IMG/VR virus record: IMGVR_UViG_2706796519_000001
Span: 6,271 to 70,270 of that record
Strand: one strand, 5' to 3'
DNA: 64,000 nt
DNA from: a virus
Taxonomy: Duplodnaviria; Caudoviricetes
In this document: positions 34,536-63,963 of the stretch, one piece after another
Position numbering within the stretch: position 1 is the stretch's first letter
Layout of the letters: the number at the start of each line of letters is the position of its first letter
Made by a program: the position numbers and the translations under genes
Notes under the pieces: model-generated
Databases searched by the model: none
What the model was told of the DNA's origin: nothing
What the model saw: the letters and a program-made list of their open reading frames with translations, nothing else

Positions 34536-34591
34536 GGCGGGTCGGTCCCGCCTACACGCTCAAAGATACCCGACTAGGGCGGGAAAGTCTA
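34536..34591 (-). promoter_or_regulatory. Repeated promoter cassette, copy 1 (TAGACT-17-TATCTT plus leader hairpin)
   Basis: -35 at 34586-34591, -10 at 34563-34568, hairpin GGCGGGACCGACCCGCC at 34536-34552. Confidence 0.75.
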
Positions 34592-34646
34592 GGGGTCCGC
34601 ACGATCGCCCGATACGCTGTGGAGACAACCACCGGAGGAGACCTGA

Positions 34647-36209
34647 GTGACCGAGCGCGTGCTGCCGTTTGACCGCAAAATCATCCGCCAGGACACCGGC
34701 TACTGGTGCGGTCCGGCCTCGACTCAGATGGCCCTGTCCGCACGCGGCAAGTACGTCGATGAGGCGACGCTCGCTCGCGAGTGCAAGACGACCGTCAACG
34801 GAACCGACAACGTCGGCCAGATCGAGCGGGTGCTCGACGTCCGGCTGCCCGAGGGCAACTACACCTCGATGTACCCCGGCGGCACGAAGATCGGCAGCCC
34901 GGCCCGACCGGCGGCGGAGCGCAAGACACGGTTCTGGTGGGACATCGTGCGCTCGATCGACAACGGGTTCGCCGTCATCCTCAACTGGGTCGTGCCCCCG
35001 GCCCGAAAGCCGATCAAGGCCGTCAAAGGCAGCACCAACCCGTCGTACGGCGGTGGGACGACGTACCACTACGTGACCGCCGTCGGGTGGTCCGATGAGG
35101 GCAACGGCGGGCGACCGGCGGTGCTCATCGCCGACAGCGGGTTCGCGCCGAACGTCTATTGGGTCGACCTCGACACGGCGTTCGCCCTGATCCACACCGA
35201 TCTCTACAAGGGGTACGCGTTCGCGGACCTGCCGCTGATCGCTCCGCCTCCGCCCGGCGTCGAGGTGCCGCCCGGCATCCCCATCAAGGTCGGCACTCCG
35301 CCGGTCGCGACGACACCGCCTGCTCCGGTCCCGCCGACGCAGCCGCCCCCGACCAAGCTCGGCTCGCTCACCGACCCGTTCACGGGCGCGCTGTGGTCTC
35401 CGAACCACTACGACGGACGCGGAGGCCTCGGCACGCCGGGATGGATCGCCGTGCACACGCAGGAGGGCGGGCGCACTGCTCGCGATCTCGCGCTGTTCCT
35501 CGCGAACCCGGCCAACGAGGTCTCGTACCACTCGGTCAACGATGACGTCGAGGTGCTGAAATGCGTCGCGGAGACCGACGCGCCGTGGTCCGCGTCCAAC
35601 GCCAACAAGTACGCCTTCCATCACTGCTTCGCCGGTAGCTATGCCGGGTGGTCCCGCGACAAGTGGCTCTCACCGGACGCCAGCGACGGCAAGAACGAGG
35701 ACGTGCAGTTGACCAAGGGCGCGCACGTCGTCGCCTGGTGGTGCGACAAGTACGGCATCCCCGCCGAATGGATCGGCGGGCGGGCGCAGCCGCCGTGGGG
35801 TGCTCGCGGCATCCTCGGTCACGTCGACCTCGGCCAGTGGGGCGGCGGGCATTTCGACCCCGGCGGCAACTTCCCCGTCAACGAGTTCATCCGGCGCGTC
35901 GTGACGTTCCTGACCGGCGACGTCCAGCCTCCGTTGGAGCCGCTGCCGCCGGTCGTCGCGCCGGGCACGAACCCTGATGCCTACAGCGATTGGATGCTGG
36001 TGCGCGGCGACCCGCGCAACGACGTCGACCGGGTGATGAGGGTCCAGTCCAAGCTCAAGCGCGCGTACGCCGCCTACGCCGGGCACCTCGACGTCGATGG
36101 CGACTTCGGCCCGGCGACACAGGCAGCGGTGCGCGAGTTCCAGCGCCGATCGAACCTTGTGGCTGACGGCATCGTCGGCCCGATGACCGCTGCAGCACTA
36201 CGTCCGTGA
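34647..36209 (+). CDS. lysA: Lysin A (C39-like peptidase, Pro-rich linker, amidase_2, peptidoglycan-binding domain)
   Basis: YWCGPAS...HYVT...DS peptidase motifs; HTQE/SYH/GHxD amidase residues; DGDFGPATQAAVREFQ...DGIVGP. Confidence 0.92.
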   Translation: MTERVLPFDRKIIRQDTGYWCGPASTQMALSARGKYVDEATLARECKTTVNGTDNVGQIERVLDVRLPEGNYTSMYPGGTKIGSPARPAAERKTRFWWDIVRSIDNGFAVILNWVVPPARKPIKAVKGSTNPSYGGGTTYHYVTAVGWSDEGNGGRPAVLIADSGFAPNVYWVDLDTAFALIHTDLYKGYAFADLPLIAPPPPGVEVPPGIPIKVGTPPVATTPPAPVPPTQPPPTKLGSLTDPFTGALWSPNHYDGRGGLGTPGWIAVHTQEGGRTARDLALFLANPANEVSYHSVNDDVEVLKCVAETDAPWSASNANKYAFHHCFAGSYAGWSRDKWLSPDASDGKNEDVQLTKGAHVVAWWCDKYGIPAEWIGGRAQPPWGARGILGHVDLGQWGGGHFDPGGNFPVNEFIRRVVTFLTGDVQPPLEPLPPVVAPGTNPDAYSDWMLVRGDPRNDVDRVMRVQSKLKRAYAAYAGHLDVDGDFGPATQAAVREFQRRSNLVADGIVGPMTAAALRP

Positions 36210-36223
36210 GGAGACCGAGCGAC

Positions 36224-36343
36224 GTGACGACGTTGGGATGGCTGCTGGTGCTCATCCTCGGCGTCGCCGCCTCACTCGGCTGGGGCGGGCTGTGGTGGTC
36301 GCTCCGCTCCGACCCCTACCGCCCTTCTGACAGGAGACAGTGA
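36224..36343 (+). CDS. 39-aa single-TM protein between the lysins
   Basis: Hand-translated MTTLGWLLVLILGVAASLGWGGLWWSLRSDPYRPSDRRQ; GAGGAG SD; GTGA overlap with lysB. Confidence 0.6.
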   Translation: MTTLGWLLVLILGVAASLGWGGLWWSLRSDPYRPSDRRQ

Positions 36344-37602
36344 TGCCCGAACTCAAGCTCGGCTACCAGGGACCGCTGTATGCGCCGTGGTTCGATTGGT
36401 TCACCCGCAAGTACAGCCAGACCGCGCCCCTGCTCGGGAAGCGGGACGGCTATTTCGGATCCGACGAGAAGCGCGCCGTCGAGGCTCTGCAGCGCAACCT
36501 CGGCATCGTGATCGACGGCGTGTTCGGCGACCGCACCGCCTCGGCAGCCGGATACACCTGGCCCGGCGCGGACGCTCCGCCGGTCATCGCGCCTCGCCGA
36601 CCGATCTGGTTCTACTCATGCCCCGGCTCCGGCGCGGACTGGTGGCTGGGTCCCAGCTACGACGTCGGCCAGATGATCGCCGGGACGGGATGGAATGAGC
36701 CGGGGCGGCGGAGCCTCAACATCAACCACCAGCCGGTCGGCTTCCCCAAGGGCGGCTACCTCGGGCTGATGGGCGGTGACCCGACGTTCAGCTATATCGA
36801 GGTCATCACAGCCCAGAAGATCGAGTTCGCCCGGCTGTTGCGGGAGAACCCCGACGTGAAGGTGGCTATGGAGGCGCGGCGTCGGGACCGCTCCGCTCGG
36901 GTCGACGTCGAGCTGTGGCCGTCCGGCTACAGCCAGTCAGCCGACGGCATGTGCGACGCGGTGGCGGAGTTGTTCGGCGACGGCGGCGAGTTCGAGCTGA
37001 TCCGCGACCGCATCAACGGCCTGATCCTGTTCGGCAACCCGGCGACTCCGGTCACCGGCATCGCCCGCAAGACGTACCCGGCGTGGTTGAACGCGCTGAT
37101 GCGGAACATCAACATGTCCGACGACTTCTATGCCGTCGCCAAAGATCGCATCCGGCCCGCCTTCTACGCCGAGATCATCAAGGCGGAGATGGAACTGCCG
37201 TTCTTTGTCCACGTGCTGCGCATCGCGGTCCCGATCGTGTTGTCGTGGGCCTCAACGCTGCTGCCGTTCCTGGCTCCGCTCTTGGGCGGTCTCGGGCCGG
37301 GCGTGCAACTCGGTCTCGGAATGATCAGCGGCCTGCAGGGTCTCGGCTCCAACCCGGCTCTCACACAACTGCTCGGCATGGCGAACGGCTCCGCCGACCT
37401 GCAGACGACCGAGCGCGTCGAGGACATCCTGTCTCCGACCGGCATCCTCTCCAACATCCCCGATCTCATCGGGCTGCTCGGGGCGCTGCCCGGCCTGCAG
37501 AGTCACGGCCTGTACCACGCGACCGCTCCGGCCCGGCCCGAGTTCGGCAACCGGGTCGGCACCCAGTTCGCTTACGACATCATCGCCGGGTTCCGCCGGT
37601 AG
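36340..37602 (+). CDS. lysB: Lysin B (mycolylarabinogalactan esterase, cutinase-like) with an N-terminal PG-binding domain
   Basis: GYSQ nucleophile motif, LFGNP, C-terminal His; follows lysA. Confidence 0.9.
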   Translation: MMPELKLGYQGPLYAPWFDWFTRKYSQTAPLLGKRDGYFGSDEKRAVEALQRNLGIVIDGVFGDRTASAAGYTWPGADAPPVIAPRRPIWFYSCPGSGADWWLGPSYDVGQMIAGTGWNEPGRRSLNINHQPVGFPKGGYLGLMGGDPTFSYIEVITAQKIEFARLLRENPDVKVAMEARRRDRSARVDVELWPSGYSQSADGMCDAVAELFGDGGEFELIRDRINGLILFGNPATPVTGIARKTYPAWLNALMRNINMSDDFYAVAKDRIRPAFYAEIIKAEMELPFFVHVLRIAVPIVLSWASTLLPFLAPLLGGLGPGVQLGLGMISGLQGLGSNPALTQLLGMANGSADLQTTERVEDILSPTGILSNIPDLIGLLGALPGLQSHGLYHATAPARPEFGNRVGTQFAYDIIAGFRR

Positions 37603-37649
37603 CTGATAACCTGCGAGGGTCATGTTCTTCGTGGTTGTGGAACAGCGCA

Positions 37650-37684
37650 GAGACCCGGCACCTTCGGGGTAGGTGCCGGGTCTC
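37650..37684. terminator. Bidirectional terminator at convergent genes
   Basis: gagacccggcacc / ggtgccgggtctc, perfect 13-bp stem. Confidence 0.8.
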
Positions 37685-37703
37685 CGCTTTGGTCGGGCAG
37701 GAA

Positions 37704-38306
37704 CTATCCCTGAGCGGCGGCGCGCCACTCGTTGTAGATGTCCTGATCCTCCTCGGTCGCCGCGACCAGGATCACCGGAGCGTCCTGGTTGGCTTTGCGC
37801 TCGCCCTTCTTAATCCGACCGAGCACCCAGCTGATGTCGCGGTCGAGCATCCGCTTGCCCTCGCGGACCAGCGGGCCGTTGAAGAACATCAGGTCGTCAA
37901 TCCGGTCGCCGACCTCGAACGCTTCGCAGGCCTCGTACTCGCCGAACTTGTTCGTGAAGCCGAACTCGTCGGGCAGGGTGAGCGGGATGATGTCGACCTT
38001 GACGAACTCCTGCAGCGGCTTCTCGGGCGAGCTGTAGGCGGTCTTCATCGCGCCGTGTTCCGTGGTGTGCATCAGCACCAGCTGGTCGAGGAAATGGAGC
38101 GGCTTGTACCCGGCGATGCCCGCCGGAGCGGCGGGGGTGTCGAACGGGCTGGCCCCCTTCTTCGCGATCGGCGCATCCCCGCCCATCGGCGCAGCGTCAG
38201 GCAGCGAGGAGGCGTCAGCCTTCGCCTTGGCAGCCGGAGCCGCCTTCTTGGCGGGAGCGGCGGTGGTGGCAGCGCCACCCTTCTTGTCAAACGGTGAACC
38301 GGCCAT
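37704..38306 (-). CDS. Replication-arm protein with a Lys/Ala-rich N-terminus (candidate ssDNA-binding protein)
   Basis: ATG 38306 after AAGGA; lies next to the exonuclease gene; function is inferred. Confidence 0.5.
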   Translation of the reverse strand: MAGSPFDKKGGAATTAAPAKKAAPAAKAKADASSLPDAAPMGGDAPIAKKGASPFDTPAAPAGIAGYKPLHFLDQLVLMHTTEHGAMKTAYSSPEKPLQEFVKVDIIPLTLPDEFGFTNKFGEYEACEAFEVGDRIDDLMFFNGPLVREGKRMLDRDISWVLGRIKKGERKANQDAPVILVAATEEDQDIYNEWRAAAQG

Positions 38307-38365
38307 TGTGGCTGATCCTTTCAGGGGTTGGTTCCGAGATAGAGAACGGAACGGGATGGGTGGGA

Positions 38366-39745
38366 CTACAGGTTGCTCGCGACCGCAGCCGCGAACTCTC
38401 CCAGGTCGTCGTCCCAAACGTCCTGGTAGGTCTCGTACACCGACTGTCCTTCATCGGCGGTGGTGATGCGGGTCAGGGCGACCCTCGCCTCAGCGAGCCG
38501 CAGACCGTCGTCAGACGGCATCGGCAGCGCGTGGATGCCCGCGACGCTCTTGCCGTTCTTGGCAGCCTTGCGCCGGTCGCGGGTCTCGATCGAGGTGATC
38601 ATGGTCTCCGCGCCCCAGGTCAGGTCCATCGTGACGGCCTGGCCGCGCTCGGGCTGATCGGACGGGATGTGCATCAGGACGGCGAACGCGGGCCGGTCGT
38701 CCTCCTCGACGTCATCGGGGTGCGGCACGCCGTAGAGCTTGGGCATCGGATCCCAACCGGAGCCGTCGAGGTTGAGCATCTTCGTCGCCCACCCGTAGAC
38801 GGCGAGCTGCACGGCGTAGCTGAGCCAGCTGTACTGCAGCGACTTGGACGTTTTGACGTCGCCCAAGATCAGGTCGCCGGTCGAGGCGATGCGGTAAATA
38901 CGGTCGATCTGGCCGGTGACGGTCTCCTCGCCGAGATCGTTCATCACGATGCGCTCGACGTACTCGGGCACCGCGATCAGCCCGAACCCCTTGAGGATGT
39001 CCTGGTAGCGGTCGACGTACGGGCGGAACATCTCCGGCACGTCGGAGTAGAGCACCTGCCCGAGGTCGATGGCTTCCAGCCAGGCGTGAACGGCGGTGCC
39101 CAGTTCGGCGGAGTCCTTGCCGCCCTGCAGGTTGTCGAGCACGTCGAGCGCCTTGTCCAGCGGGCCAACCGTCGGTTCATCGAGCGCCGCCACGATCGCG
39201 TCGAGCGCTTCGCCCGCCGTGACCTTGAACCGCTCCGACAACATCGCATCGCGGTCCATCTGACAGACCTTGAGCACGCGCAGCGCGGTCTCCCGGCGCT
39301 TCCACTTCCACAGCCCCACGATGTCATCGAGAGTGTCGGCGACGGTCGTGGCCCGCGTGAATCCGGTCGGGCGGTTGGTCTGCGGAGCCGGGAGGAGGTA
39401 CTGCTTCCACCCGTTGAACTTGGGCTTGTAGCGCGGCGGCTCCGGCGGCAGCGGATACCCTTGCCATTCGGTCTGTCGGCCCATGATCTCGCCCGTGTCA
39501 TCAATCGCGGTCACTGCACTCTCCTCTGTTGTGGTTGCGGCGGGCTCGCTGCCCGCCTCGCTGACGTTCTGCGCCTCCGAGGGGTCTTGTACCGGCGGCA
39601 GCGGCTCCGGCGCGCCTGCGGCGAAATAGGACGGGTCTGCGTACTGCTCTTGCGAGGTCCACCCGGCCTGATCGCCCTTCCCGGCGCGGTACCAGACGGT
39701 GTTGGTATCACGCCGGGCCGGGAACATCTCAGCGACCGTGCTCAT
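38366..39745 (-). CDS. PD-(D/E)XK exonuclease (RecB/Cas4-like)
   Basis: GQIDRIY...GDVKTSK...QLAVY; alternative in-frame start at GTG 39514. Confidence 0.85.
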   Translation of the reverse strand: MSTVAEMFPARRDTNTVWYRAGKGDQAGWTSQEQYADPSYFAAGAPEPLPPVQDPSEAQNVSEAGSEPAATTTEESAVTAIDDTGEIMGRQTEWQGYPLPPEPPRYKPKFNGWKQYLLPAPQTNRPTGFTRATTVADTLDDIVGLWKWKRRETALRVLKVCQMDRDAMLSERFKVTAGEALDAIVAALDEPTVGPLDKALDVLDNLQGGKDSAELGTAVHAWLEAIDLGQVLYSDVPEMFRPYVDRYQDILKGFGLIAVPEYVERIVMNDLGEETVTGQIDRIYRIASTGDLILGDVKTSKSLQYSWLSYAVQLAVYGWATKMLNLDGSGWDPMPKLYGVPHPDDVEEDDRPAFAVLMHIPSDQPERGQAVTMDLTWGAETMITSIETRDRRKAAKNGKSVAGIHALPMPSDDGLRLAEARVALTRITTADEGQSVYETYQDVWDDDLGEFAAAVASNL

Positions 39746-40635
39746 GCAGCAGACCGTCGTAACTTGGTGTGGTCCGCTGCCGGGTGGATGAAGTGCTCCG
39801 CCTTCGAGTCCCAGGGAACGAACTTGCTGCCGTGCAGGTACGAGTGCCAGCAGGAGGACAGATCAGCGAGACGCTGCAGGTTCAACCCTCGCGAGGTCGC
39901 GCCGAGCGGAATCTTGTTGTCCTTGCGGCTGTAATGCTTGATCATGTCGGTGCGCGGGTCTCCCAGACCGACCCCGTTTCCGGTGGCGTAGTCCGTCCAG
40001 AACTTCTCCGCGTCGGGATGGTCGCCGGTCCAGAACAGCAACCATCCCAAAGTCCGAACGGTCGCAATTGAGGCCTCGCCCCATTCTTTGTTGGCCCGCT
40101 TCACTACTGACGACGCGAGCGCGGCAGCCCGTTCCAGCGTGTCGCTGTGCTGATGAGCGAACCGGATAGCGTCAGCGGTGTCCGGCTTGACGTCGACCCG
40201 AGGCATTTTCGGCGGGCCGCTGGTAGCCATCGCCACCGAAATGATCGAGGCGATGCTGGCCTGATTGGCACGAAATCCCGTATAGGCGAGGTGATGGGCC
40301 AGGGTGCGATTGCGTCCGCTGTCCATCTGCAGAAGCTCGTCTTCCGAGACGTCGCGAACGACCAGTACCGGCACACCCGGGTGGTTCTTGGGCAGGCTGG
40401 CAATGGCCTCCGCGCGGTTGTTGCCGTTACCTAGAGTGCCGTCGTGCATGATCGCGAACGGGGTGGCGATGCGCGGGTACCAGCGCCCGATCTCGATGTA
40501 CGTCCGATAGAGCCGGACCGACTCAGGACTGACCTTGCGCTGACCCGCGTGAGGGCGCTTGCGATACTCGCGCGCCTCCGCCGGGGTCCAGACCTCGATC
40601 TGAGGAGTCGACAAGGTGTCAGCGGTGTTCTTCAT
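39742..40635 (-). CDS. ParB/Srx-like (DGQHR-type) domain protein
   Basis: RKVSPESVRLY...GRW...FAIMHDGTLGNGNNRAEAI...MDSGRNRT; AGGAG SD before ATG 40635. Confidence 0.6.
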   Translation of the reverse strand: MKNTADTLSTPQIEVWTPAEAREYRKRPHAGQRKVSPESVRLYRTYIEIGRWYPRIATPFAIMHDGTLGNGNNRAEAIASLPKNHPGVPVLVVRDVSEDELLQMDSGRNRTLAHHLAYTGFRANQASIASIISVAMATSGPPKMPRVDVKPDTADAIRFAHQHSDTLERAAALASSVVKRANKEWGEASIATVRTLGWLLFWTGDHPDAEKFWTDYATGNGVGLGDPRTDMIKHYSRKDNKIPLGATSRGLNLQRLADLSSCWHSYLHGSKFVPWDSKAEHFIHPAADHTKLRRSAA

Positions 40636-40703
40636 GTTCGTTCTCCTATGGTTGTTTTCCCGGCGGGGCGATCCCGCACGGGCCAGGCGGTTCGATCCCG
40701 CCA

Positions 40704-40738
40704 AGTCTTGTGTCATCTGTCATCAGTCTTGTGCCATC
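40704..40738. repeat. 14-bp direct repeat pair with 21-bp period
   Basis: agtcttgtgtcatc (40704-40717) and agtcttgtgccatc (40725-40738). Confidence 0.7.
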
Positions 40739-41144
40739 AGCGATAACTCCGAATCGGCGTCAATTCTCGCCCTCGCTTCTGCTGACGGCGATGAGTACCG
40801 CACAGATCATGAGCAACGGTCTCTCGAGTGCATTCGGGTCCAGTACAGATCGCAGCCTGGCGTTTCCCAAACCGCCGATCGGGCTGAGGTTCCGGGACTT
40901 CCACCCCTGCCTCGCGTGCGATCTTCCGCCGATAATCCTCGTAATCAGTGCTGATGAATGCCCAGTCCCGCGTCTTGGGCCAGCCGTGTTCGTATCCCGG
41001 CACTTTCGCGTCGGCCAGCCGGTCAAAATGGAGGATGAATCCGCGACGGGTGTTCTTGCGTCGGCACACCTCGCCAACGACGGCTCCGCATCGAGTGCAC
41101 TCGATAGCCAGTGTTGATTTGATTTGCACCTCGGTCACGCTCAT
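40737..41144 (-). CDS. Cys/His-rich putative zinc-binding protein
   Basis: CxxC...C...H and CxxxxC...CxxH; ATGA overlap with the helicase stop. Confidence 0.65.
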   Translation of the reverse strand: MSVTEVQIKSTLAIECTRCGAVVGEVCRRKNTRRGFILHFDRLADAKVPGYEHGWPKTRDWAFISTDYEDYRRKIAREAGVEVPEPQPDRRFGKRQAAICTGPECTRETVAHDLCGTHRRQQKRGRELTPIRSYR

Positions 41145-42835: not shown

Positions 42836-42885
42836 GTGAATCCGATCTGAGGCTGAGAGTGGATCTGAGTCTGAGGTTGAGAGGT

Positions 42886-42949
42886 GCGGGCCGGTCCGGC
42901 AGAACCGGCCCGCGATCTCATTTATACCCGACGACGACGGGAAAGTCTA
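42886..42949 (-). promoter_or_regulatory. Repeated promoter cassette, copy 2 (TAGACT-17-TATAAA) with a different leader hairpin
   Basis: -35 at 42944-42949, -10 at 42921-42926, 10-bp inverted repeat at 42886-42913. Confidence 0.75.
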
Positions 42950-50995: not shown

Positions 50996-51378
50996 CGGGT
51001 CACCCGCAACCCGGCGTACACGTCGCCCTCGCCGGTGTTGGGGTCGACCACGACGTGGCACGGCCACAGGCCGACCAGCTTGCCGTGATCATCCCAGCAG
51101 CCCGGCGTCGCCGTCTCGGGACCGCAGACCCGGTTGCCCCTCGTCCGGCAGTCCCACGCCGGGTCGTCCTCCTCGGGGCCGATGCCGGTCACCATCTCGA
51201 CGTACTCGGCGTAGTCGAACGAGCGCCCGGTGAAGGCGGTCGAGGTCGAGGCCTCGGCGGTTGTCACCTGGTGATCGCGCGGCTCCGCTACAGCGAGGCC
51301 CAGGGGCAGTCCGGCGGCGAGGCCGACGAACACGCCAGCCGCGAACATCACCGCGCGGTCGATAGTCGAAGGTTTCAT
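50992..51378 (-). CDS. Membrane-anchored protein
   Basis: N-terminal TM segment; EEDDPAWDC..GNRVCG. Confidence 0.65.
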   Translation of the reverse strand: MKPSTIDRAVMFAAGVFVGLAAGLPLGLAVAEPRDHQVTTAEASTSTAFTGRSFDYAEYVEMVTGIGPEEDDPAWDCRTRGNRVCGPETATPGCWDDHGKLVGLWPCHVVVDPNTGEGDVYAGLRVTR

Positions 51379-51403: not shown

Positions 51404-51461
51404 GGCGGGTCGGTCCCGCTCGGGTTAGTTTTTTATACCCGATAGACCCACTGGCCGTCTA
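51404..51461 (-). promoter_or_regulatory. Repeated promoter cassette, copy 3 (TAGACG-18-TATAAA plus leader hairpin)
   Basis: -35 at 51456-51461, -10 at 51432-51437, hairpin at 51404-51419. Confidence 0.65.
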
Positions 51462-51842: not shown

Positions 51843-52211
51843 GCGCTGGACTCTACCCCGTCAGCGTCGGGTGACTGCCTCACGCGCGTGCGCGCGCGCG
51901 ATCTTAGTGGTTCGCACCCCACGACGTCTATTAAGAATTATTCTTAGAATGCGACCCCTCGACTTTATTTTGAACAGGGGTATAGGATCGGCGGCGAGAC
52001 TTGCCGGTCCATACCACCCCGCTATCGCGGTCCTGATCGGCAAGATTATTTTTTCTCTGGAGTCGCCCGAGAACCCCACTGGGACTACCCCGAGGGCGAC
52101 GTCTGGGAGACCGCAGGCGCGTCTCGCTCGCGCCCGCCTCGCGGACAAGGCCGACGGGTGGGACGCGGATATGGGATAGCGCGCTAACCCGTAGTCAGAT
52201 AGAGTCGAGGC
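51843..52211. other. AT-rich non-coding divergence region (candidate origin or control region)
   Basis: No credible gene; T/A tracts; palindrome TAAGAAT-T-ATTCTTA at 51932-51946. Confidence 0.5.
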
Positions 52212-56602: not shown

Positions 56603-56703
56603 CGGGCCGGACGTCCGCACCGTGCGCAGACCTCGACCGCTCGCCCGGCCCGAACAATCGTCATCGTCGTCAAGTGACGGCACGGGGCGTGCGGCGCGCT
56701 CAC
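56599..56703 (-). CDS. 34-aa Zn-finger-like mini-protein
   Basis: Hand-translated MSAPHAPCRHLTTMTIVRAGRAVEVCARCGRPAR; 4-nt overlaps at both ends. Confidence 0.5.
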   Translation of the reverse strand: MSAPHAPCRHLTTMTIVRAGRAVEVCARCGRPAR

Positions 56704-57070: not shown

Positions 57071-57324
57071 CACGCCTCCTCGCACGCCACCTCGGGCCGG
57101 TGCACCAGATAGCACCGATTACACAACACCTCGCGCGGACCGACCGTGAACTCAGCGAGATTCAGCGCGTCGGCGGTGCCCGGTCCGCGCCCGTCGGGCC
57201 ACTCCTCGATCGGCTCCGGCCTCGGTCCGCAATCAACCCCCGGCAGGCACGCCCGGCACCCCGTCGTGGCGGAGTGGGCGCGGTGTCCGCATCGTCGGCA
57301 CGGCACCCGGTAGTCGAACGTCAC
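57067..57324 (-). CDS. Cys-rich Zn-binding protein
   Basis: CxxCxH...CxxC...C; CxxC..H...C. Confidence 0.6.
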   Translation of the reverse strand: MTFDYRVPCRRCGHRAHSATTGCRACLPGVDCGPRPEPIEEWPDGRGPGTADALNLAEFTVGPREVLCNRCYLVHRPEVACEEAW

Positions 57325-57530
57325 CGCCCGTCGCCGTTCGGGACGACGACCGGCCCGTGTGTCGGGCAGCGGAGCCGTCCGGCCTGCTCGCAGTCGAGGC
57401 ACTTGCCCGTCTGAACAGCGTTGTGGGCCTCGACGGCGGCAGCTAGCCGCTCGATCGCGGAGATGGCGCGCTCGGCGGTTTCCTGCCAGCTGGCCGGGTT
57501 GCCTCCGGCAATCATGTCGAACAGTGACAT
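57321..57530 (-). CDS. Small protein with a CxxC...CxxH motif
   Basis: GGAGG SD; coupled overlap. Confidence 0.6.
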   Translation of the reverse strand: MSLFDMIAGGNPASWQETAERAISAIERLAAAVEAHNAVQTGKCLDCEQAGRLRCPTHGPVVVPNGDGR

Positions 57531-57895
57531 CAGATGACCTCCGACCCGTTGTGATCCTCGACCCTGGCGGTGTTGACCCATCCGCCCTTGGGAGCCTTCG
57601 GCCCGCCGGTGCGGGTCGCGACGACGACGTGGTTGTGCCCCAGCCGGAACACGCCGCCCTTCCATGCCGGTTCCACCAGCAGGAACTCCGGCCTCGCGCC
57701 CCGGCTCAGGGCGACCTTGCCGACGCGCTCGGTGCGGGTCGCCCCGTCGAGCACCCGCACGTCGACCGCAGCCTTGTAGGCGGCAGCGATCGAGGGGTGC
57801 GTGTCCTCGATCAGCGTGAGGTCGAGCGCGTCGCCGTGCTGTGTGCGCAGCCGTGCCGCGATCTCGATCAGGGTCGGGTTCGGCGTGTCGGTCAT
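57530..57895 (-). CDS. Hypothetical protein
   Basis: AAGGGAG SD, ATGA overlap. Confidence 0.65.
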   Translation of the reverse strand: MTDTPNPTLIEIAARLRTQHGDALDLTLIEDTHPSIAAAYKAAVDVRVLDGATRTERVGKVALSRGARPEFLLVEPAWKGGVFRLGHNHVVVATRTGGPKAPKGGWVNTARVEDHNGSEVI

Positions 57896-58170
57896 GTGAT
57901 CGGTGCTCCCTTCGAGGTGATCTGCAGTCCGTTGCGGCGCAGGTTGGCGATGTCGTTCTTGCGGCTCCGGTACTCGCTCGGCGTCCCGGCGATCGTGCCG
58001 ATGAGGCGACCGTCGAGATAGACCTTGTAGTGCCCAGTGCGGCTCCGGCATGGCTTGAGTTCACCGCCTGCCGCCTCGATCGCGGCGAGTAGCGCCCGCG
58101 TGTCGCGATCGGAGGTTCGATTGCTGGCTCGCTTGGAGCCGGGTTGGGGTCCGCTGCAGACCACCGTCAC
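57892..58170 (-). CDS. HicA-like toxin-fold protein
   Basis: LLAAIEAAGG...TGHYKVY...TIAGTPSEYRSRKNDIANLRRNG. Confidence 0.6.
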   Translation of the reverse strand: MTVVCSGPQPGSKRASNRTSDRDTRALLAAIEAAGGELKPCRSRTGHYKVYLDGRLIGTIAGTPSEYRSRKNDIANLRRNGLQITSKGAPIT

Positions 58171-58478
58171 CACCACATTTCGCCGTCGTGGAGGACGACG
58201 GTGAACTGGTCGCCGTCGCTCGCGGAGTCGATCGCAGCACACACGTCGCGCCGGTCGACCGGCGCGAGCCGAGCGACCAGCGTCGTGCTCGACAGTTGGA
58301 TAGATGCGTGGTTGCCGGTCGAGACATTCACCGCTTCCAGCACGCGGTACGTCTTGGCGGCGACGTAGGTGCGAGCGGTGATGACTTTGTAGGCCTGTCC
58401 GCGCTCGACCGCTCCCAGCATCACCCCTCGGTACACGTCCCCCGGCTGCAACTCAGCTGCCTCGATCACCGTGCTCAT
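58167..58478 (-). CDS. Hypothetical protein
   Basis: First gene after promoter copy 4; AAGGGG SD. Confidence 0.7.
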   Translation of the reverse strand: MSTVIEAAELQPGDVYRGVMLGAVERGQAYKVITARTYVAAKTYRVLEAVNVSTGNHASIQLSSTTLVARLAPVDRRDVCAAIDSASDGDQFTVVLHDGEMWW

Positions 58479-58492
58479 ATCGGTCCCCTTCC

Positions 58493-58549
58493 GGCGGGTC
58501 GGTCCCGCCTCATGTCTCTTAACTTACCCGACGTCGTCGGGCTAGTCTA
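58493..58549 (-). promoter_or_regulatory. Repeated promoter cassette, copy 4 (TAGACT-17-TAAGTT plus leader hairpin)
   Basis: -35 at 58544-58549, -10 at 58521-58526, hairpin at 58493-58509. Confidence 0.75.
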
Positions 58550-58552
58550 GGT

Positions 58553-58753
58553 CTACTTTTGTGTCACGATCCGGCGCGGCTCGCGCTGCAGATGCTCATC
58601 GAGCTGCCCGACGAGAGACGGGCGCGGAGGCCGGGCCGGAGCCGCGTGGACGCGGACCTTGCCGTCCTTGCGGACGGCGCGCGGCGTGAGGCAGATCGGG
58701 CACAGCTGCTCCGTGACGTACCGCTCGCGATCGGCCCACCTCCGCCGGGACAT
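58553..58753 (-). CDS. Small basic protein with a CxxC...H motif
   Basis: 66 aa, LCPIC...VRKDGKVRVH. Confidence 0.55.
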   Translation of the reverse strand: MSRRRWADRERYVTEQLCPICLTPRAVRKDGKVRVHAAPARPPRPSLVGQLDEHLQREPRRIVTQK

Positions 58754-58782
58754 CAGCGGAGGTGAGCCAGACCCGAGGCACT

Positions 58783-58953
58783 TCACCGACCCGCACTCCA
58801 CGCCGCCGGGAGGAACCCGCCCCGGTCGATCCATTCGTGCAGCGCCAAGATCAGCTCGGCGAGCCGGACTGCTTGGGCGTCGTGATCCTCGGCGAACTGC
58901 ACGATGCCGCGCGCGAGTCCCAGCGTCTCGGCCAGGTTGGCGTCGGGGTCCAT
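58783..58953 (-). CDS. 56-aa hypothetical protein
   Basis: MDPDANL...LHEWIDRGGFLP..W; start overlaps the upstream stop. Confidence 0.65.
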   Translation of the reverse strand: MDPDANLAETLGLARGIVQFAEDHDAQAVRLAELILALHEWIDRGGFLPAAWSAGR

Positions 58954-59195
58954 CAGGAGACCTCGACCCAACGCATCACGACCCGCAACGCGGCGTCGTA
59001 ACTGTCGGCGTCGATGATCTCGTTGACGAACTCGCGCGCCTGGTCGCGGGTCGCTCCGCCGGAGAGCAGCGCCCGCTGGACCCGACCGATGATCAGGAAC
59101 ACGTTGCCGTCGTCGCCGGTCAGCTTCACGTGGACGTCAGGGAACTTCGGCCCGGTCGTCTCCGGCTCGGTGGCCGGAGCGGTGTCGTTTGCCAT
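58953..59195 (-). CDS. Hypothetical protein
   Basis: LTGDDGNVFLIIGRV..AL...G...YDAAL; GGAGGAGG SD. Confidence 0.75.
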   Translation of the reverse strand: MANDTAPATEPETTGPKFPDVHVKLTGDDGNVFLIIGRVQRALLSGGATRDQAREFVNEIIDADSYDAALRVVMRWVEVS

Positions 59196-59246
59196 GCTGT
59201 AGTGCCTCCTCCCGCCCGATCGGCGGAGTTGTAGGGGTTTGTGTGC

Positions 59247-59273
59247 GCGTTGGCCGGACGCGCCCCCGGTCGT
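59247..59273. repeat. 27-nt intergenic repeat, copy 1
   Basis: gcgttggccggacgcgcccccggtcgt, 26/27 identical to 61677-61703. Confidence 0.8.
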
Positions 59274-59276
59274 GCT

Positions 59277-59858
59277 CTAGTGCCGCTCGAACGGGCTGCC
59301 GTAGCGCCCGCCGGAGCCGCCTGCCCCGAGCGGCGAGACGTACCCGCCCGACGCGTACCGTGCCCCGGTCAAGACGGCCACGACGCTCGGCTCCGCCGGG
59401 TCGGACGTGCCCAGCACCCGGCCATAGTCGCCCATCTCCTCGGCGACCGGCGGCTCCACGCCCTCGGGCAGCAGGTTCTCCGCATCGACCAGCGACCGGA
59501 GTGTTGCCCAGATGGCCTCGCCGACGAACTGCAACAGGCCGGGCCAGTTGAAACGGCGACCGTCCTGCCCCGTCACGGCCCAGCGGACGCTGCGACCCTC
59601 GCGCCACCCGACGGCGGCGTAGGCGTACTCGCGACCGTTGAGGTACCGCTGGAACGCGACGACCGGGTTCTCGCCCTGCGCCACGCGCGGCATCTTGGGC
59701 TTGCGCGCCTCCTCTTCGGCGACCGCCTGTTCAGCGGCCTGCCTCGTCAGCTCATCGGCGACGGCGCGTGCCCTTGCGGCCTCGGCGCGGAGCTGTGCGG
59801 CGGAGACCGGCTCGACGCTCTTGACGTTGGTGGCCTTCTCGCCCTCGGATTCACTCAT
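59277..59858 (-). CDS. Hypothetical protein (coiled-coil N-terminus)
   Basis: GAGGA SD before ATG 59858. Confidence 0.7.
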   Translation of the reverse strand: MSESEGEKATNVKSVEPVSAAQLRAEAARARAVADELTRQAAEQAVAEEEARKPKMPRVAQGENPVVAFQRYLNGREYAYAAVGWREGRSVRWAVTGQDGRRFNWPGLLQFVGEAIWATLRSLVDAENLLPEGVEPPVAEEMGDYGRVLGTSDPAEPSVVAVLTGARYASGGYVSPLGAGGSGGRYGSPFERH

Positions 59859-59901
59859 GGTTTTGATCCTCTCAGTGGTTGTGATTTGTTGGGTTGTGGG
59901 A

Positions 59902-59951
59902 GGGGTCCGGCGAGGGCGCACGGGCGGAGCACACCCACCTCGCCGGACCCC
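59902..59951. terminator. 14-bp perfect inverted repeat with a 22-nt loop
   Basis: ggggtccggcgagg / cctcgccggacccc. Confidence 0.55.
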
Positions 59952-59957
59952 GGTCTG

Positions 59958-60281
59958 TTATCCGCGCGGGACGACGTACACGCCCCACCGGACCCGCCGT
60001 ACCAGCGTCGGTTGGCTCCGGTGCAGGTCGGCGAGGCGGCTGTTGACGACGTTGGCAGGCAGGTCCATCTCCTCCGCAACGGCGGTGTAGTGCGCCCCGT
60101 CGTCGTGCTTCACCAGGACGTCATAGACCTCGCGCTGCTTGCGAGTGAGCACGGACGGGTCGCCGGGCGTGAAGGCGGCGGGCCGACCGTACGTGTCGAA
60201 TGCCGATAGCAGCGCAGCCGCCTCGTACGGGTCATCGCCCGGCTCGATCTCGACCGTCACCTCACCTTTCGTGATCTTCAC
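59958..60281 (-). CDS. Winged-HTH DNA-binding protein
   Basis: LTRKQREVYDVL...TAVAEEMDLPANVVNSRLADL...VRRVRWGVY. Confidence 0.7.
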   Translation of the reverse strand: MKITKGEVTVEIEPGDDPYEAAALLSAFDTYGRPAAFTPGDPSVLTRKQREVYDVLVKHDDGAHYTAVAEEMDLPANVVNSRLADLHRSQPTLVRRVRWGVYVVPRG

Positions 60282-61351
60282 GCGCTCGCCCCAACCATCG
60301 GACCCCACCGGAGCACCTGATCCGTCGTCAGCGGCAGAGCCTTGCGCAGCCCGGCGTACGCGTCCGACTTGATCTTGTGCACGTCGGCGGAGGTCAGCGT
60401 GCGGTTGGCGCGCCGGGACGCGGCGTTGCCGCCCTTGCCGAACACGGGCATGAAGTGGTCGGCGTACTCGGTGACCGCGTTGTAGGCGGCGTAGGCCGTG
60501 CCCGCGAACGGGGTGATCGAGGGCGAGTGACGCATGACCTCCATGACCTGAGTGACGCGCTCGACGCGAGCGTTGCGGGCCTTCTCGGAGTCGGCCTTGT
60601 TCACGCCGAACACGTCGTTGAACACCGCCCTCACCCACGCCTCCTCGCGATCGACCTGCAGCGACTCCATCCCGCTCGCGTACACCTCGGTGTACTTGAA
60701 CGTCAGCCCCAGCAGCCTCCGCACCTCAGCCAGCTTCGCCGCCGACGCGCCGACGTGACGCAGGGCGACCGAGCTGACGGCCTCCGCCTCGGCGATGCGC
60801 TGCGTGTTGGCGCAGACGATGCGGACCGGGGAGATGATGGCGCGGAGCGACCCCTGGCCGTCGTGGTGATTGATCACGGCCAGATAGACCTCGGTCGTGT
60901 CGCGGAACCCGTCGGAGCCGGTGAACTCGACGTGAGTCGGCATCAACATCGTCACGAACGTCCGTCGCCCGCCGTCGAGCGCGCCGATGGTCTGGATATG
61001 TGCGCCGGACTGGTCCGTGATGGCGTAGAGGAGGTCGGTGGTCTCCTCGTTCTGGATCGGCTGCCAGCGGTCGCCGACGACGGCCAGCGCCTCCGGCATG
61101 AGCGTGACCGGGTTGGTCCGCAGGACCGTCCACTGGCCGGGCGCGTTGATCTCGGTCGTCCCGCCGAGACCGTCGTCAACGATCTGGGCGTGCTCGACCT
61201 TGCGAACGTTCCAGTCGTTCATGTTCGCCGCTTCCAGCGCCTCCGCCGGGGCCATCTCATGGCCGACCTGCTGCCCGAGTTGATGCCATGCATCGTTGCG
61301 GCTATCGGCGAAGCTGTAGCGACCGGCGGTTCTGTCGATCTCATGTCCCAT
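60278..61351 (-). CDS. DUF932-family protein
   Basis: AWHQLG...LAVVGDRWQPIQN...GALDGGRRTF...NHHDG...PVRIVCANT. Confidence 0.85.
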   Translation of the reverse strand: MGHEIDRTAGRYSFADSRNDAWHQLGQQVGHEMAPAEALEAANMNDWNVRKVEHAQIVDDGLGGTTEINAPGQWTVLRTNPVTLMPEALAVVGDRWQPIQNEETTDLLYAITDQSGAHIQTIGALDGGRRTFVTMLMPTHVEFTGSDGFRDTTEVYLAVINHHDGQGSLRAIISPVRIVCANTQRIAEAEAVSSVALRHVGASAAKLAEVRRLLGLTFKYTEVYASGMESLQVDREEAWVRAVFNDVFGVNKADSEKARNARVERVTQVMEVMRHSPSITPFAGTAYAAYNAVTEYADHFMPVFGKGGNAASRRANRTLTSADVHKIKSDAYAGLRKALPLTTDQVLRWGPMVGASA

Positions 61352-61382
61352 GATCTTGTCTCCGTTCGAGTTGGGTTGTGGG

Positions 61383-61643
61383 TTAGGACTGGGTGCCGTC
61401 GTGCGGGGTGTTGTCGTCGCCGTTGGACACGCCGTCTCCGTCGTCGTCCTTGGCTCCCCAGCCACCTCCTCCGCCGTGGGAGTTGATGGCGATGTCCTTG
61501 CATTCGGCCTTGTGGCCGGTGCGGTAGGCCATGTTCGAGCTACACAAGACGTCGTCCTGCGGTCCTGCGACGGCGGGCGATGCGAGGGCGAAACCTCCGG
61601 CGATGAGCGAGGCTCCGAGCGCGGCAGTGAGGGTGATCTTCAT
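61383..61643 (-). CDS. Small exported protein with a DxDxDG-type acidic motif
   Basis: Signal peptide; two Cys; KDDDGDGVSNGDDNTP. Confidence 0.7.
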   Translation of the reverse strand: MKITLTAALGASLIAGGFALASPAVAGPQDDVLCSSNMAYRTGHKAECKDIAINSHGGGGGWGAKDDDGDGVSNGDDNTPHDGTQS

Positions 61644-61676
61644 GGTCGTTCCTTCCAGTGGTTGTGTTGGGTTTGT

Positions 61677-61703
61677 GCGTTGGCCGGACGCACCCCCGGT
61701 CGT
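61677..61703. repeat. 27-nt intergenic repeat, copy 2
   Basis: gcgttggccggacgcacccccggtcgt. Confidence 0.8.
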
Positions 61704-61704
61704 T

Positions 61705-61974
61705 CTACTTGGGGAGATCGGTGCCCTGAGTCGCGTCGGCTGCCCAGAGGGTCAGGTTCACGATGTCGGCACCGTCGGTGCTGTCGAGGTCGATGACCGC
61801 GACGCGGCTGGTCTCATCGCCGCCGACGGTCCCAGCTGCCCAGGTCTCGTGAATGTCGGTCCAGGTGATCTGGCCGTGCATATGCTGAGCCGAGAGCATC
61901 GAGTCGAGGATGGAGTAGCCGTCCTCCTCGTTCGAGGTGGCCCAGCCGGTGACGATTGCGGTGCGAACGGTCAT
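61705..61974 (-). CDS. Hypothetical acidic protein
   Basis: First gene after promoter copy 5; GAGG SD. Confidence 0.65.
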   Translation of the reverse strand: MTVRTAIVTGWATSNEEDGYSILDSMLSAQHMHGQITWTDIHETWAAGTVGGDETSRVAVIDLDSTDGADIVNLTLWAADATQGTDLPK

Positions 61975-61987
61975 TTTTGCCTCTCTC

Positions 61988-62047
61988 GGCGGGGTCGGTC
62001 CCGCCTCCAACAAGACTGATATTACCCGACGTCGGCGGGAAAGTCTA
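61988..62047 (-). promoter_or_regulatory. Repeated promoter cassette, copy 5 (TAGACT-17-TAATAT plus leader hairpin)
   Basis: -35 at 62042-62047, -10 at 62019-62024, hairpin at 61988-62005. Confidence 0.8.
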
Positions 62048-62089
62048 TAGCTTTCTAGCTGGGATTATGACAATCTTCCGAGCCGGGAA

Positions 62090-62257
62090 TCACGGTAGCG
62101 ACCAGATTGCTGCGCCGACCGGGATAGTCAGGACCGAGGTGAGCATGATCGTCGCCCCGACCCACTCGCGAGCGGAGCCGTGTTCGGCCCGGCTGAGTAC
62201 GGACATGCCCAAAAGCACGCCGGAGATGCCCACTAGGGCGATGAACAGGACGCTCAC
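62090..62257 (-). CDS. 55-aa 2-TM membrane protein
   Basis: Hand-translated MSVLFIALVGISGVLLGMSVL...IMLTSVLTIPVGAAIWSLP; AAGGAG SD, GTGA overlap. Confidence 0.6.
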   Translation of the reverse strand: MSVLFIALVGISGVLLGMSVLSRAEHGSAREWVGATIMLTSVLTIPVGAAIWSLP

Positions 62258-62616
62258 GGGGTCTCCTTGCGGATCACGTCGGCGATCGGGTCGCCGAACA
62301 TCTCGGATTGTTCTTCGTAGCTGAGCGGGCCGACCACCTCCGCGACCGCATCGGCCTCGATCTGGTTGCGCCGGGCGAGACGTCGCTGTTGCTCGACGTG
62401 GTGTTGGTCAATGGCCTCGCGAGCCTCGGCTACCTGCGCGGCCATATCGGCGCGGATGATCGCGTCCCACAAGGTCAGCGGCTCCGGCGTCGGGCGCGGA
62501 GCGACCAGGTTGTGTGCCCACGCGATGTGCGAGGCATCCTCGGCATCACGGACGCGGCGGCGAGCCTTGCGACCGAACCACCCGCACGCGGGGCAGCGGA
62601 ATCGACGGCACTTCAC
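62254..62616 (-). CDS. Hypothetical protein with a CPAC motif
   Basis: 120 aa, GTGA overlap. Confidence 0.65.
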   Translation of the reverse strand: MKCRRFRCPACGWFGRKARRRVRDAEDASHIAWAHNLVAPRPTPEPLTLWDAIIRADMAAQVAEAREAIDQHHVEQQRRLARRNQIEADAVAEVVGPLSYEEQSEMFGDPIADVIRKETP

Positions 62617-62963
62617 GGGACAATCACCTCAATCTCTCGGCGGAACAGGCACAGTCGTCGCCCTCGGGCGAACGTGATGCAGAACAGCGGCTCGCGCTCA
62701 CCGTTCATGATCGAGGAGACGTGACCGCGCCGGGTACCGCTCACGATCACGGCGTCGCCGATGACCGGCGTCACCTCGGGGTCCGCAGCGCGGGCGCTCG
62801 CCGCGTCGCCGCAGACGGTCTGAGCCTGCCTCTTGGTCGGATAGTGGGTGGGGTCGACCCCCGGCCCGTCGGCGAACCATCCGTGCCGGTGCCCGTGGTG
62901 CTCGACCACGAACGGGCCGGACTCATACCGCGCCGGGTCGGCGGTCTCGCGGTGCCATTTCAT
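62613..62963 (-). CDS. Hypothetical protein
   Basis: AGGAG SD, ATGA overlap. Confidence 0.65.
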   Translation of the reverse strand: MKWHRETADPARYESGPFVVEHHGHRHGWFADGPGVDPTHYPTKRQAQTVCGDAASARAADPEVTPVIGDAVIVSGTRRGHVSSIMNGEREPLFCITFARGRRLCLFRREIEVIVP

Positions 62964-63166
62964 GCGGGTTCTCCTGTCAACAGGCGCGAGGCCTCGGGAA
63001 AGTAGAACGCGGCGGAGCCGCCGCATCCACACAACCGCCGGGCTGCGGTGTGCTTGTCTGGGCAGCAGGCGTTGGCGTCGTACTCGGCCCACCACTCCGC
63101 CCACGTCATCGCCTCCTCGAATACCTCGGCGAGGTTGGGCTGGTCCAGATCGGTATCGGTGATCAT
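62960..63166 (-). CDS. Small Cys-containing protein
   Basis: AGGAG SD; CC...H...CGC. Confidence 0.6.
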   Translation of the reverse strand: MITDTDLDQPNLAEVFEEAMTWAEWWAEYDANACCPDKHTAARRLCGCGGSAAFYFPEASRLLTGEPA

Positions 63167-63203
63167 GTCGGTCTCCTGGTCGATTGTCGGGACGGGGTGG
63201 AGA

Positions 63204-63231
63204 GCGGGGCGGAGTCGAGACCCCGCCCCGC
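63204..63231. terminator. Intergenic hairpin
   Basis: gcggggcgg / ccgccccgc, 9-bp stem. Confidence 0.45.
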
Positions 63232-63237
63232 GTCGGA

Positions 63238-63891
63238 TCACCGGGTGTGCGAGATGTAGCTGAGCCACCGATCGAGGTTGTCCTGCGCGTCGGCGGTGCT
63301 CATGCCCTCGGGCGCGGTGATCGAACCGTCGGCCCAGGCTTCCAGGATGACCTTGTGGATCTGGTCGCCGAGCAGCTGCTTGAGCTTGAGCGGCGACGGG
63401 GCGGAGGCCTTCGCGACGACCGGCTCAGCAGCCTCGATCTCCTCGGCAGCCTCGGCCCGGCGGGCGATCTCCGCGTCCACGGCGGCGTCGACCGTCATCA
63501 GTTCCTCGACCGGGGCGGGTGCCTCGGCCTCGGTCTCGACCGGATCAGCGCCGGGTGCCTCCGCTGCGATCTCGATCGGCAGAGCGACCGTCTTGGACGC
63601 GTTCTTGGCCGCGACCAACTCGGTGAATGCGCTGGCGGGAATCTCGCCCCAGCCGTCGATCTCCGGCGTCCAGTCTCCGAGCTTGCCCTTGATCGCGGTT
63701 GGGAGCACCGGGTAGACCGTCGCGCCCGGCCCGAACTGGCGACCTTGCGCGGCCTTGTAGGCGCTGGCGAAACTCTTGTGCCAGGTGACGCCGTCCACGG
63801 TCGCGACGTAGGGCATGGTCCCGCTGGTGCGGGTGACAGGCGCATCCTCGGTGCCGGGAATCTGTGCGGTGAACTCGATCTTTGCGGCCAT
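63238..63891 (-). CDS. Hypothetical Ala/Glu-rich protein
   Basis: 217 aa; first gene after promoter copy 6. Confidence 0.75.
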   Translation of the reverse strand: MAAKIEFTAQIPGTEDAPVTRTSGTMPYVATVDGVTWHKSFASAYKAAQGRQFGPGATVYPVLPTAIKGKLGDWTPEIDGWGEIPASAFTELVAAKNASKTVALPIEIAAEAPGADPVETEAEAPAPVEELMTVDAAVDAEIARRAEAAEEIEAAEPVVAKASAPSPLKLKQLLGDQIHKVILEAWADGSITAPEGMSTADAQDNLDRWLSYISHTR

Positions 63892-63904
63892 TTTTGCCTT
63901 TCTC

Positions 63905-63963
63905 GGCGGGTCGGTCCCGCCTCCAACAAAGATGATATTACCCGACTTCGGAGTGAAAGTCTA
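63905..63963 (-). promoter_or_regulatory. Repeated promoter cassette, copy 6 (TAGACT-17-TAATAT plus leader hairpin)
   Basis: -35 at 63958-63963, -10 at 63935-63940, hairpin at 63905-63921. Confidence 0.8.

Follow-up and report, generated by a model that had tools for sequence, protein, structure and literature searches.

The systems that most resemble the element described here, a 17-nucleotide (nt) hairpin, GGCGGG-ACCGA-CCCGCC, lying between promoter and Shine–Dalgarno sequence (SD) in a 64,000-nt stretch of a tailed virus (the window; bases 6271-70270 of the 70,270-bp virus record IMGVR_UViG_2706796519_000001, and so including its right genome end), are those controlled by Aca proteins. Aca2 of Pectobacterium phage ZF40, which controls acr-aca2 operons, binds, as DNA, an inverted repeat within its promoter (Birkholz 2019, PMC6765145). 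According to a summary of later work (Birkholz 2024), it also binds RNA hairpins at the start of the 5' untranslated region (UTR), its helix-turn-helix (HTH) domain reading the RNA helix in a DNA-like manner and the ribosome-binding site (RBS) being blocked; one dimer binds two hairpins, RNA motifs between genes and control of neighbouring operons are reported, "actino-" and "proteo-" RNA motifs are included among those of Aca2, and the motif published for Aca1 is a single stem-loop (PMC13551039).

The locus in the window resembles the ZF40 system in a strong promoter of sigma-70 type whose -35 and -10 boxes flank an inverted repeat, in another repeat, folding into an RNA hairpin where the 5' UTR begins, beside the RBS, and in an HTH protein of about 120 amino acids (aa), with a C-terminal dimerisation domain, encoded in an operon that it would control. 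RNA motifs are also found between genes within operons, as in the Aca2 system. It differs in the number of controlled units, which would be 5-7 here and up to about 14 in relatives, operons of replication genes included, versus up to three reported for Aca2. No anti-CRISPR gene was recognised, although no anti-defence library was searched, and the genes examined downstream of the hairpins have no Pfam match or belong to PHROGs of unknown function.

Other described elements are similar in part. The boxB of the lambda nut site is a 15-17-nt pentaloop hairpin in early leader RNA that is read by a phage protein through its loop, and whose stem can covary. The element in the window is likewise a short pentaloop hairpin in the leader RNA of putative early operons, but its stem is invariant, its loop largely free and its copies placed at SDs, and no boxA accompanies it: in an alignment of 64 copies neither a boxA-like partner nor a conserved second box was found downstream of the hairpin, only the SD. 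An earlier reading of the window, made from the sequence only, had considered antitermination loading; this role finds no footing in the absence of a boxA-like partner, the variation of the loops and the lack of any tie to terminators. Cluster O mycobacteriophages carry a 17-bp dyad repeat, TGTTCGG-N3-CCGAACA, whose orientation is not meaningful relative to transcription and many copies of which are intragenic (PMC4351075). Length, invariant arms, variable centre, many copies per genome and a frequent position just upstream of starts are common to both, whereas strict orientation, coupling to promoter and SD, and compensated variants are seen only in the hairpin. The start-associated sequence (SAS) of Cluster K, 13 bp long and containing the SD, with inverted repeats in its extended form (PMC3203893), is also a short motif repeated at the translation starts of many non-structural mycobacteriophage genes; however, it is not promoter-coupled and has no sequence similarity to the hairpin. 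With the stabilisers of ompA and papA in E. coli and of aprE in B. subtilis the hairpin shares a GC-rich stem-loop a few nt from the presumed 5' end, followed by a strong RBS. These are single-gene elements defined by structure and free in sequence, whereas the stem described here is near-invariant over dozens of copies and several host genera.

The window comes from a mycobacteriophage of subcluster B5; at its right end it shares 98% identity with Mycobacterium phage Rich (Acadianvirus, also B5). Among the groups of mycobacteriophages, Cluster B ranks second in size and comprises over 350 genomes (PMC9262239). Gene control in this cluster is essentially undescribed in the literature searched, and a full-text search returned no description of the present element in its members.

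Leader Hairpins in the Window

The window (67% G+C) contains six leftward SigA-like promoters, TAGACN-N17/18-TAnnn(T/A), all on the minus strand and starting at 63963, 62047, 58549, 51461, 42949 and 34591. TAGACT-N17-TATCTT (34563..34591) leads an operon whose products are a DUF6011 protein, an HTH protein of 128 aa and an Xis-like protein of 69 aa, and TAGACT-N17-TATAAA (42921..42949) leads the helicase operon; the remaining ones are TAGACG-N18-TATAAA (51432..51461), TAGACT-N17-TAAGTT (58521..58549) and two copies of TAGACT-N17-TAATAT (62019..62047 and 63935..63963). The spacers of three of them contain an inverted repeat, CCCGCC-N3-GTCGGG at 34563 and 62019 and CCCGAC-N3-GTCGGG at 58521. This repeat, CCCGCC-N3-G(T/G)CGGG in general form, corresponds to the hexamer duplex of the hairpin stem and is found in several lineages, including that of the window. 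A simple sigma-70 scan did not call the TAGACT promoters (8 of 12 positions matched); they are considered promoters because orthologous copies in other genera read TTGACA-N17-TAACTT.

Behind five of the six promoters, 10-13 nt past the -10 hexamer, lies GGCGGG-ACCGA-CCCGCC or a near copy, with a purine-rich SD directly past the stem and a start codon 13-27 nt past it. The sequence-only reading had reported the same stem-loop after five of six promoters, and all its sites exist, with correct coordinates and on the minus strand; the exact sequence, however, is restricted to three. These are 34536..34552 (covariance model 38.1 bits), followed by GGAG and an ATG at 34517 in the leader of the DUF6011/HTH operon; 58493..58509 (39.3 bits), before a 103-aa gene starting at 58478; and 63905..63921 (43.3 bits), before the 217-aa gene starting at 63891 in the right-most operon. 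At 51404..51420, before a gene of 128 aa starting at 51378, the outer pair is broken (AGCGGG-ACCGA-CCCGCC), and at 61988..62005 (33.1 bits) an extra C with respect to phage Rich makes a loop of 6 nt. Two degenerate tandem hairpins with 5-bp stems (40662..40702, minus strand), also reported before, precede a ParB-like gene that has a strong SD and an ATG at about 40635: TGCGGG-ATCGC-CCCGCC at 40662-40678 and GGCGGG-ATCGA-ACCGCC at 40686-40702. Both fold (leader -29 kcal/mol, z -2.3) and match the covariance model weakly (16.3 bits), and no recognisable promoter lies upstream of them.

Allowing up to three mismatches, the motif occurs 13 times in the window versus 2.56 expected, a count reached in none of 100 shuffles. 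The stem at 34536..34552 folds (-12.5 kcal/mol class), although the single canonical leaders have z scores of only -1 to -3.5, because short RNAs rich in G and C fold readily. Folding energy alone is no evidence for the hairpin. The 64-kb window gave no Rfam match at gathering score, and one leader searched separately gave chance-level matches only (E at least 0.23). A terminator reading was rejected, there being no U-run after the stem on the sense strand.

Conservation across Phages

The comparison comprised ten further complete Bclasvirinae genomes of different genera (Hetaeria, KayaCho, Audrey, LilMcDreamy, Thonko, Saguaro, PenguinLover67, Hosp, RawrgerThat and BirdsNest) and the partial genomes of Acadian, Serendipitous and Reprobate. 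With a 91-nt query spanning promoter and hairpin, 386 phage records were matched, 384 of them from Mycobacterium phages, and those examined belong to Cluster B. Full genomes carry from 3 to about 14 units, each consisting of a -35 box, a 17-nt spacer, a -10 box, about 11 nt, the hairpin, an SD and an ATG. Across genera, 58 of 67 copies have exactly these stem hexamers, and variation is seen in the -35 and -10 hexamers, the spacer, the loop and the SD. A scan of 11 full genomes that made no assumption about the stem recovered 273 perfect hairpins of 6 bp in front of an SD with a start codon; 68 have this stem, and the next commonest stem was found five times. In 64 distinct copies, which were selected for an unchanged stem of twelve bases, each of four unpaired positions (the A preceding the stem, A1 and G4 of the loop and the G following the stem) is the same in at least 90%, and loop positions 2, 3 and 5 vary freely, within single genomes too. 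The idea that the loop ACCGA is conserved like the stem thus applies to subcluster B5 only, as relatives keep just A1 and G4.

The hairpin is found outside Cluster B as well. TPA2, a Cluster-B-like phage of Tsukamurella that is distantly related at 35-60% protein identity, has seven copies, a 56-kb metagenomic virus (G003) has eight, and Gordonia phage Skog (152 kb), whose genome is otherwise unrelated, has seven clustered at 8-16 kb. The promoters that precede the hairpin differ among Cluster B, TPA2, the metagenomic virus and Skog. The sequence-only reading had suggested a covariance model across related phages, and this gives 30-44 bits in the gene sense, the element being conserved in the Bclasvirinae genomes examined, TPA2 and Skog. 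A host motif was also considered, and was rejected by scans of bacterial genomes: the motif with an SD has nine scattered matches in 185,579 bacterial species, close to our own chance estimate, and the covariance model found two single matches in 121 Mycobacteriaceae genomes, the top 60 candidates per genome being scored. Because the hexamers are kept outside Cluster B behind differing promoters and do not recur in the bacterial genomes searched, the hairpin is taken as a phage-borne element, and something probably reads the sequence of its stem. The near-invariance of the stem suggests a reader that recognises sequence.

The position of the element is as regular as its stem. The -10 box and the stem are separated by 10-13 nt in 63 of 67 copies. 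Transcription start sites (TSS) usually lie 6-8 nt past the -10 box; with such a start, 3-7 unpaired nt would precede the stem, which would begin at about +4 to +7 and not 10-20 nt into the transcript, as had been proposed. On the other side, the SDs that follow the stem (GAGGAAGG, GAGAAAGG, GGAAGG and similar) pair with the extreme 3' end of 16S rRNA. The tail sequence was found at the end of one Mycobacteriaceae 16S gene, and we take the mature 3' end to lie there. This pairing begins 0-1 nt past the stem in 50 of the 64 copies, and runs of at least 6 bp are present in 35 of 64, versus 15.9 +/- 3.3 in shuffles.

Evidence Favouring an RNA Hairpin over a DNA Site

The 17-nt element is a real, conserved leader RNA hairpin. 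True cassettes contain the compensated stem variants AGCGGG/CCCGCT, GCCGGG/CCCGGC, GTCGGG/CCCGAC, GGCCGG/CCGGCC and GGGCGG/CCGCCC, and Skog has a compensated GGCGAG/CTCGCC three times. When an inner stem position changes in a true cassette its partner has nearly always changed too, and uncompensated changes are almost confined to the terminal pairs. In the covariance-search alignment, which is fitted to the model and hence biased toward structure, 99.4% of cells are paired and five are changed on both sides, a result equalled in none of 500 shuffles; in scans anchored on half a stem the signal was drowned by the background of coding sequence. Loops of 3, 6 and 7 nt are found in a cassette or SD context, so that the half-sites of a DNA operator would fall out of phase. 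The conserved unpaired bases are placed asymmetrically (A-stem-ANNGN-stem-G), the covariance model scores at most 20 bits in antisense, copies in the left arm take the strand of their own downstream gene, and promoter-less canonical copies stand directly 5' of SDs within operons (Saguaro 68208, PenguinLover67 63977 and 67423, BirdsNest 69172). Compensation, tolerance of loop length, asymmetry, strand and promoter-less copies together indicate that the strand folded is that of the gene sense.

The sequence-only reading had left the choice among an RNA element for protein binding, 5' stabilisation and a second DNA operator. The strand asymmetry, compensated variants, tolerance of loop length and promoter-less copies, along with an HTH protein of Aca2 fold, favour the first; compensated and loop-length variants speak against the DNA operator, and 5' stabilisation is possible as a side effect.

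A Candidate Reader Protein

The candidate is the 128-aa HTH protein (33281..33667, minus strand), whose gene is second in the operon behind hairpin 34536. In its AlphaFold model (predicted local distance difference test score 89.3) an HTH domain precedes a beta-alpha-beta domain, giving the two-domain fold of Aca2. The sole full-length structural matches are Aca2/DUF1870 chains: 2ox6 (Z 10.9), 7ezy (Z 10.6; root-mean-square deviation (rmsd) 2.9 over 106 aligned residues) and 1s4k (Z 9.3), and Aca2 of ZF40 (7vjp) gives Z 10.1. In VIA-align the top seven rows all belong to Aca2/DUF1870 (Z 8.8-10.9, 103-122 residues, rmsd 2.7-3.9), and the next, at Z 6.5 or less, cover the HTH only; TM scores in Foldseek are 0.62-0.67. 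In Pfam the protein matches HTH_31 (E 4.3e-5) and HTH_19 only.

Homologues of this protein are present in every lineage that carries the hairpin. Those of TPA2 and the metagenomic virus have 44% identity, and gp16 of Skog is a remote homologue (hhalign 95.8%, E 6.6e-9) whose gene is, as in the window, the second of its operon, in Skog the first hairpin-led one, behind the cassette at 8316. The other DNA-binding product of the operon, the 69-aa Xis/MerR-like protein (33071..33280, minus strand; phrog_597), also has a homologue in Skog; as a reader it was ranked lower, its family being common in actinophages and its Skog copy lying far from the cassettes.

A Possible Aca2-Type Switch and Its Alternatives

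Since the 128-aa protein has the Aca2 fold and homologues in all hairpin-carrying lineages, we propose, with a probability of roughly 0.55, that hairpin and protein form an Aca2-type switch acting on DNA and RNA at all early operons. The hairpin would lie at the very start of the 5' UTR of these operons, at about +4 to +21 with the TSS placed as above, adjoining the SD, and would be the RNA target of the phage's own regulator, itself encoded in a hairpin-led operon. By analogy with ZF40 Aca2, the regulator would build up after infection, read the GGCGGG:CCCGCC stem duplex like a DNA half-site and, sitting beside the SD, block the access of ribosomes, so that translation of every early operon would be turned off at once. 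Repression of the promoters, by way of the CCCGCC-N3-GTCGGG repeat of their -35/-10 spacer, may be a further activity of the regulator. The kind of switch would most likely be one already published, its use on many operons at once being what is proposed here.

Several observations weigh against this proposal. The 128-aa protein is 13-20% identical to Aca2 and lacks the DUF1870 signature (PF08965 was not matched up to E 10); sequence and profile searches against the PDB found no Aca2, only HTH proteins of the 434-repressor type. Fold is thus all that the two have in common, and a shared fold does not amount to RNA binding. Divergence of the candidate reader, down to 23% identity in Skog, has left the stem invariant. 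The repeat in the promoter spacer is absent in Audrey (B3), KayaCho, Hosp, TPA2, the metagenomic virus and Skog, so not all lineages with the hairpin have it. Whereas one ZF40 Aca2 dimer binds two hairpins, five leaders of the window have a single one, and two are found only in that of the ParB-like gene (40662-40702). Finally, the helicase operon carries an unrelated long hairpin, which fits a purely structural role at least equally well.

That role would be one of a passive leader hairpin acting in cis, which shields early mRNAs from decay by RNase E/J that depends on the 5' end and may present the SD, with no dedicated protein. The stem would be only some 3-7 nt from the TSS, 5' stem-loops combined with ribosome binding are the classic stabilisers of ompA, papA and aprE (PMC3997798), and mycobacterial RNase E, which cuts single-stranded RNA, sets the decay rates of most mRNAs (PMC10641625). 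The helicase leader retains, at the same place in 14 of 14 genomes, a hairpin of unrelated and fast-changing sequence, and the pairing of SD and 16S tail mentioned above starts at the stem in most copies, with long runs exceeding those of shuffles. A structural role predicts compensated drift, yet the 58 of 67 copies that keep the exact hexamers do so across genera and hosts; the conserved unpaired A, A1, G4 and G would go unexplained, and the promoter-less copies inside operons would lie at a 5' end only if processing of the transcript created one. As the whole explanation a passive hairpin is therefore rather doubtful, although the hairpin may plausibly stack on the SD helix and protect the 5' end passively, in ways compatible with a regulator. 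It is unlikely that the hairpin is instead an element for translation and stability that the host machinery, and not the Aca2-like protein, reads. Its invariant stem and flanking A and G, kept in phages of Mycobacterium, Tsukamurella and Gordonia, would then directly contact something that Mycobacteriales have in common, for instance the 30S platform or the 3' end of 16S rRNA; the helix would stack on an SD duplex that uses the last 16S bases, and the hairpin would be an undescribed, phage-specific signal for ribosome recruitment.

The same 17 bp could also be read as double-stranded DNA, with GGCGGG-N5-CCCGCC at +4..+21 serving as an operator at which a dimeric phage repressor blocks promoter escape or elongation, like a "stoperator". 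Invariant arms around a spacer of 5 bp, variable in sequence and mostly fixed in length (11 bp centre to centre), a site just downstream of promoters, HTH proteins encoded in a cassette-led operon and the analogous invariant-armed 17-bp dyad of Cluster O phages (PMC4351075) would all suit it. Compensated double changes in single copies are nevertheless unexpected where half-sites are recognised; G.U-type variants occur, loops of 3, 4, 6 and 7 nt put the half-sites out of phase, flanks and loop are conserved in a strand-specific manner with orientation fixed relative to the gene, and promoter-less copies are locked to the SD instead, all of which makes such an operator very unlikely. Least probable of all is a recombination module, in which the promoter-hairpin-SD cassette is a short patch of homology for the shuffling of small early genes and any role in expression is secondary. 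PeSL cassettes reportedly act in this way in T4-type phages (Arbiol et al. 2010). Small variable genes do stand in blocks behind the cassettes, Skog has, behind one of its own cassettes, a 45%-identical homologue of the second gene that follows hairpin 58493, and the ParB-like insertion, absent in Acadian, is preceded by two degenerate copies. But 17-30 bases offer very little homology, and neither the pairing constraint and asymmetry nor the invariance of the stem alone, among lineage-specific flanks, is explained by shuffling, which is in any case compatible with an Aca2-type switch and does not compete with it.

Related Sites and Leaders

The different hairpin that had been noticed behind the helicase promoter was recovered at 42886..42913 (minus strand): a non-canonical stem of 10-12 bp (z -5.9) in the same place as the canonical ones, followed by a C/U-rich leader. 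In all 14 genomes such a long hairpin comes right after the -10 box, with sequences unrelated to one another. Folded singly they reach -24 to -41 kcal/mol, with z of -4 to -8 in most of them, while RNAalifold gave no consensus for the 14 leaders, whose non-homologous stems are not alignable by MAFFT. The 50-80 nt 3' of the hairpin (42836-42885, minus strand, in the window; also in 13 relatives) are nearly free of G, being composed of CTCAG/CCTCA repeats in B5 or of CA-rich repeats, CACCACACCAAC, in other genera, with an SD that is weak or missing. This region looks like a conserved unstructured translation leader.

A further promoter-like site, TAGACG-N18-TAAGAT, is found at 51930 (minus strand) in a divergent intergenic region, with an alternating CGCGCGCGCGCACGCGCG hairpin downstream at 51884-51905; Hetaeria and RawrgerThat have a similar CGCGCG hairpin after a promoter at the equivalent place. 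Immediately upstream of the tandem hairpins of the ParB-like leader, at 40703-40760 (minus strand), lie 14-bp direct repeats, GATGGCACAAGACT and GATGACACAAGACT, with 21 bp between them; Acadian, Serendipitous and Reprobate have neither the ParB-like gene nor its neighbour.

Some sites bear on the annotation of gene starts. Deposited open reading frames (ORFs) extend over hairpins in TPA2, whose orf4 (1473-1988) covers two, and in Rich, whose gp50 (window 39742-40716) covers both degenerate copies; the real starts of the two are probably the ATGs behind the SDs that follow the hairpins. At 39539-39557 (minus strand), about 200 nt inside an annotated 459-aa exonuclease-like gene, GGCGGG-N7-CCCGCC is followed by ACAACCACAACAGAGGAGAG and a GTG, and may mark an internal start or a mis-called start of that gene. 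An intragenic GGCGGG-N5-CCCGCC at 30812-30828 (plus strand), within a 115-aa ORF of the tail region (30489-30836), was set apart from the leader hairpins, since it is coding. Every Cluster B genome examined has it in the same place of this gene, though with differing centres (CACCG, CAGTG, TACCG), and it could be a frameshift-stimulating hairpin for a possible -1 shift into an ORF open to 31177.

The second gene behind hairpin 58493 (57892-58242, minus strand) has its homologue at Skog 9511-9735, just downstream of the first gene of a cassette. There are hints in these sequences that modules of gene plus cassette may move between phage lineages.

Implications

The promoter-hairpin-SD unit is a compact, ready-made and probably switchable expression cassette for mycobacterial genetics. 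If the proposed switch is true, the dozens of unknown small genes that lie behind these leaders would constitute a defined regulon, and with it a list of candidates for anti-defence and host-takeover functions. Dual control of DNA and RNA by HTH proteins would grow from single anti-CRISPR operons to genome-wide programmes, and would reach phages grown in the laboratory on a host that is not known to have CRISPR immunity. One protein and one 17-nt RNA would then suffice to test directly how an entire family of lytic phages shuts off early genes in the change from early to late.

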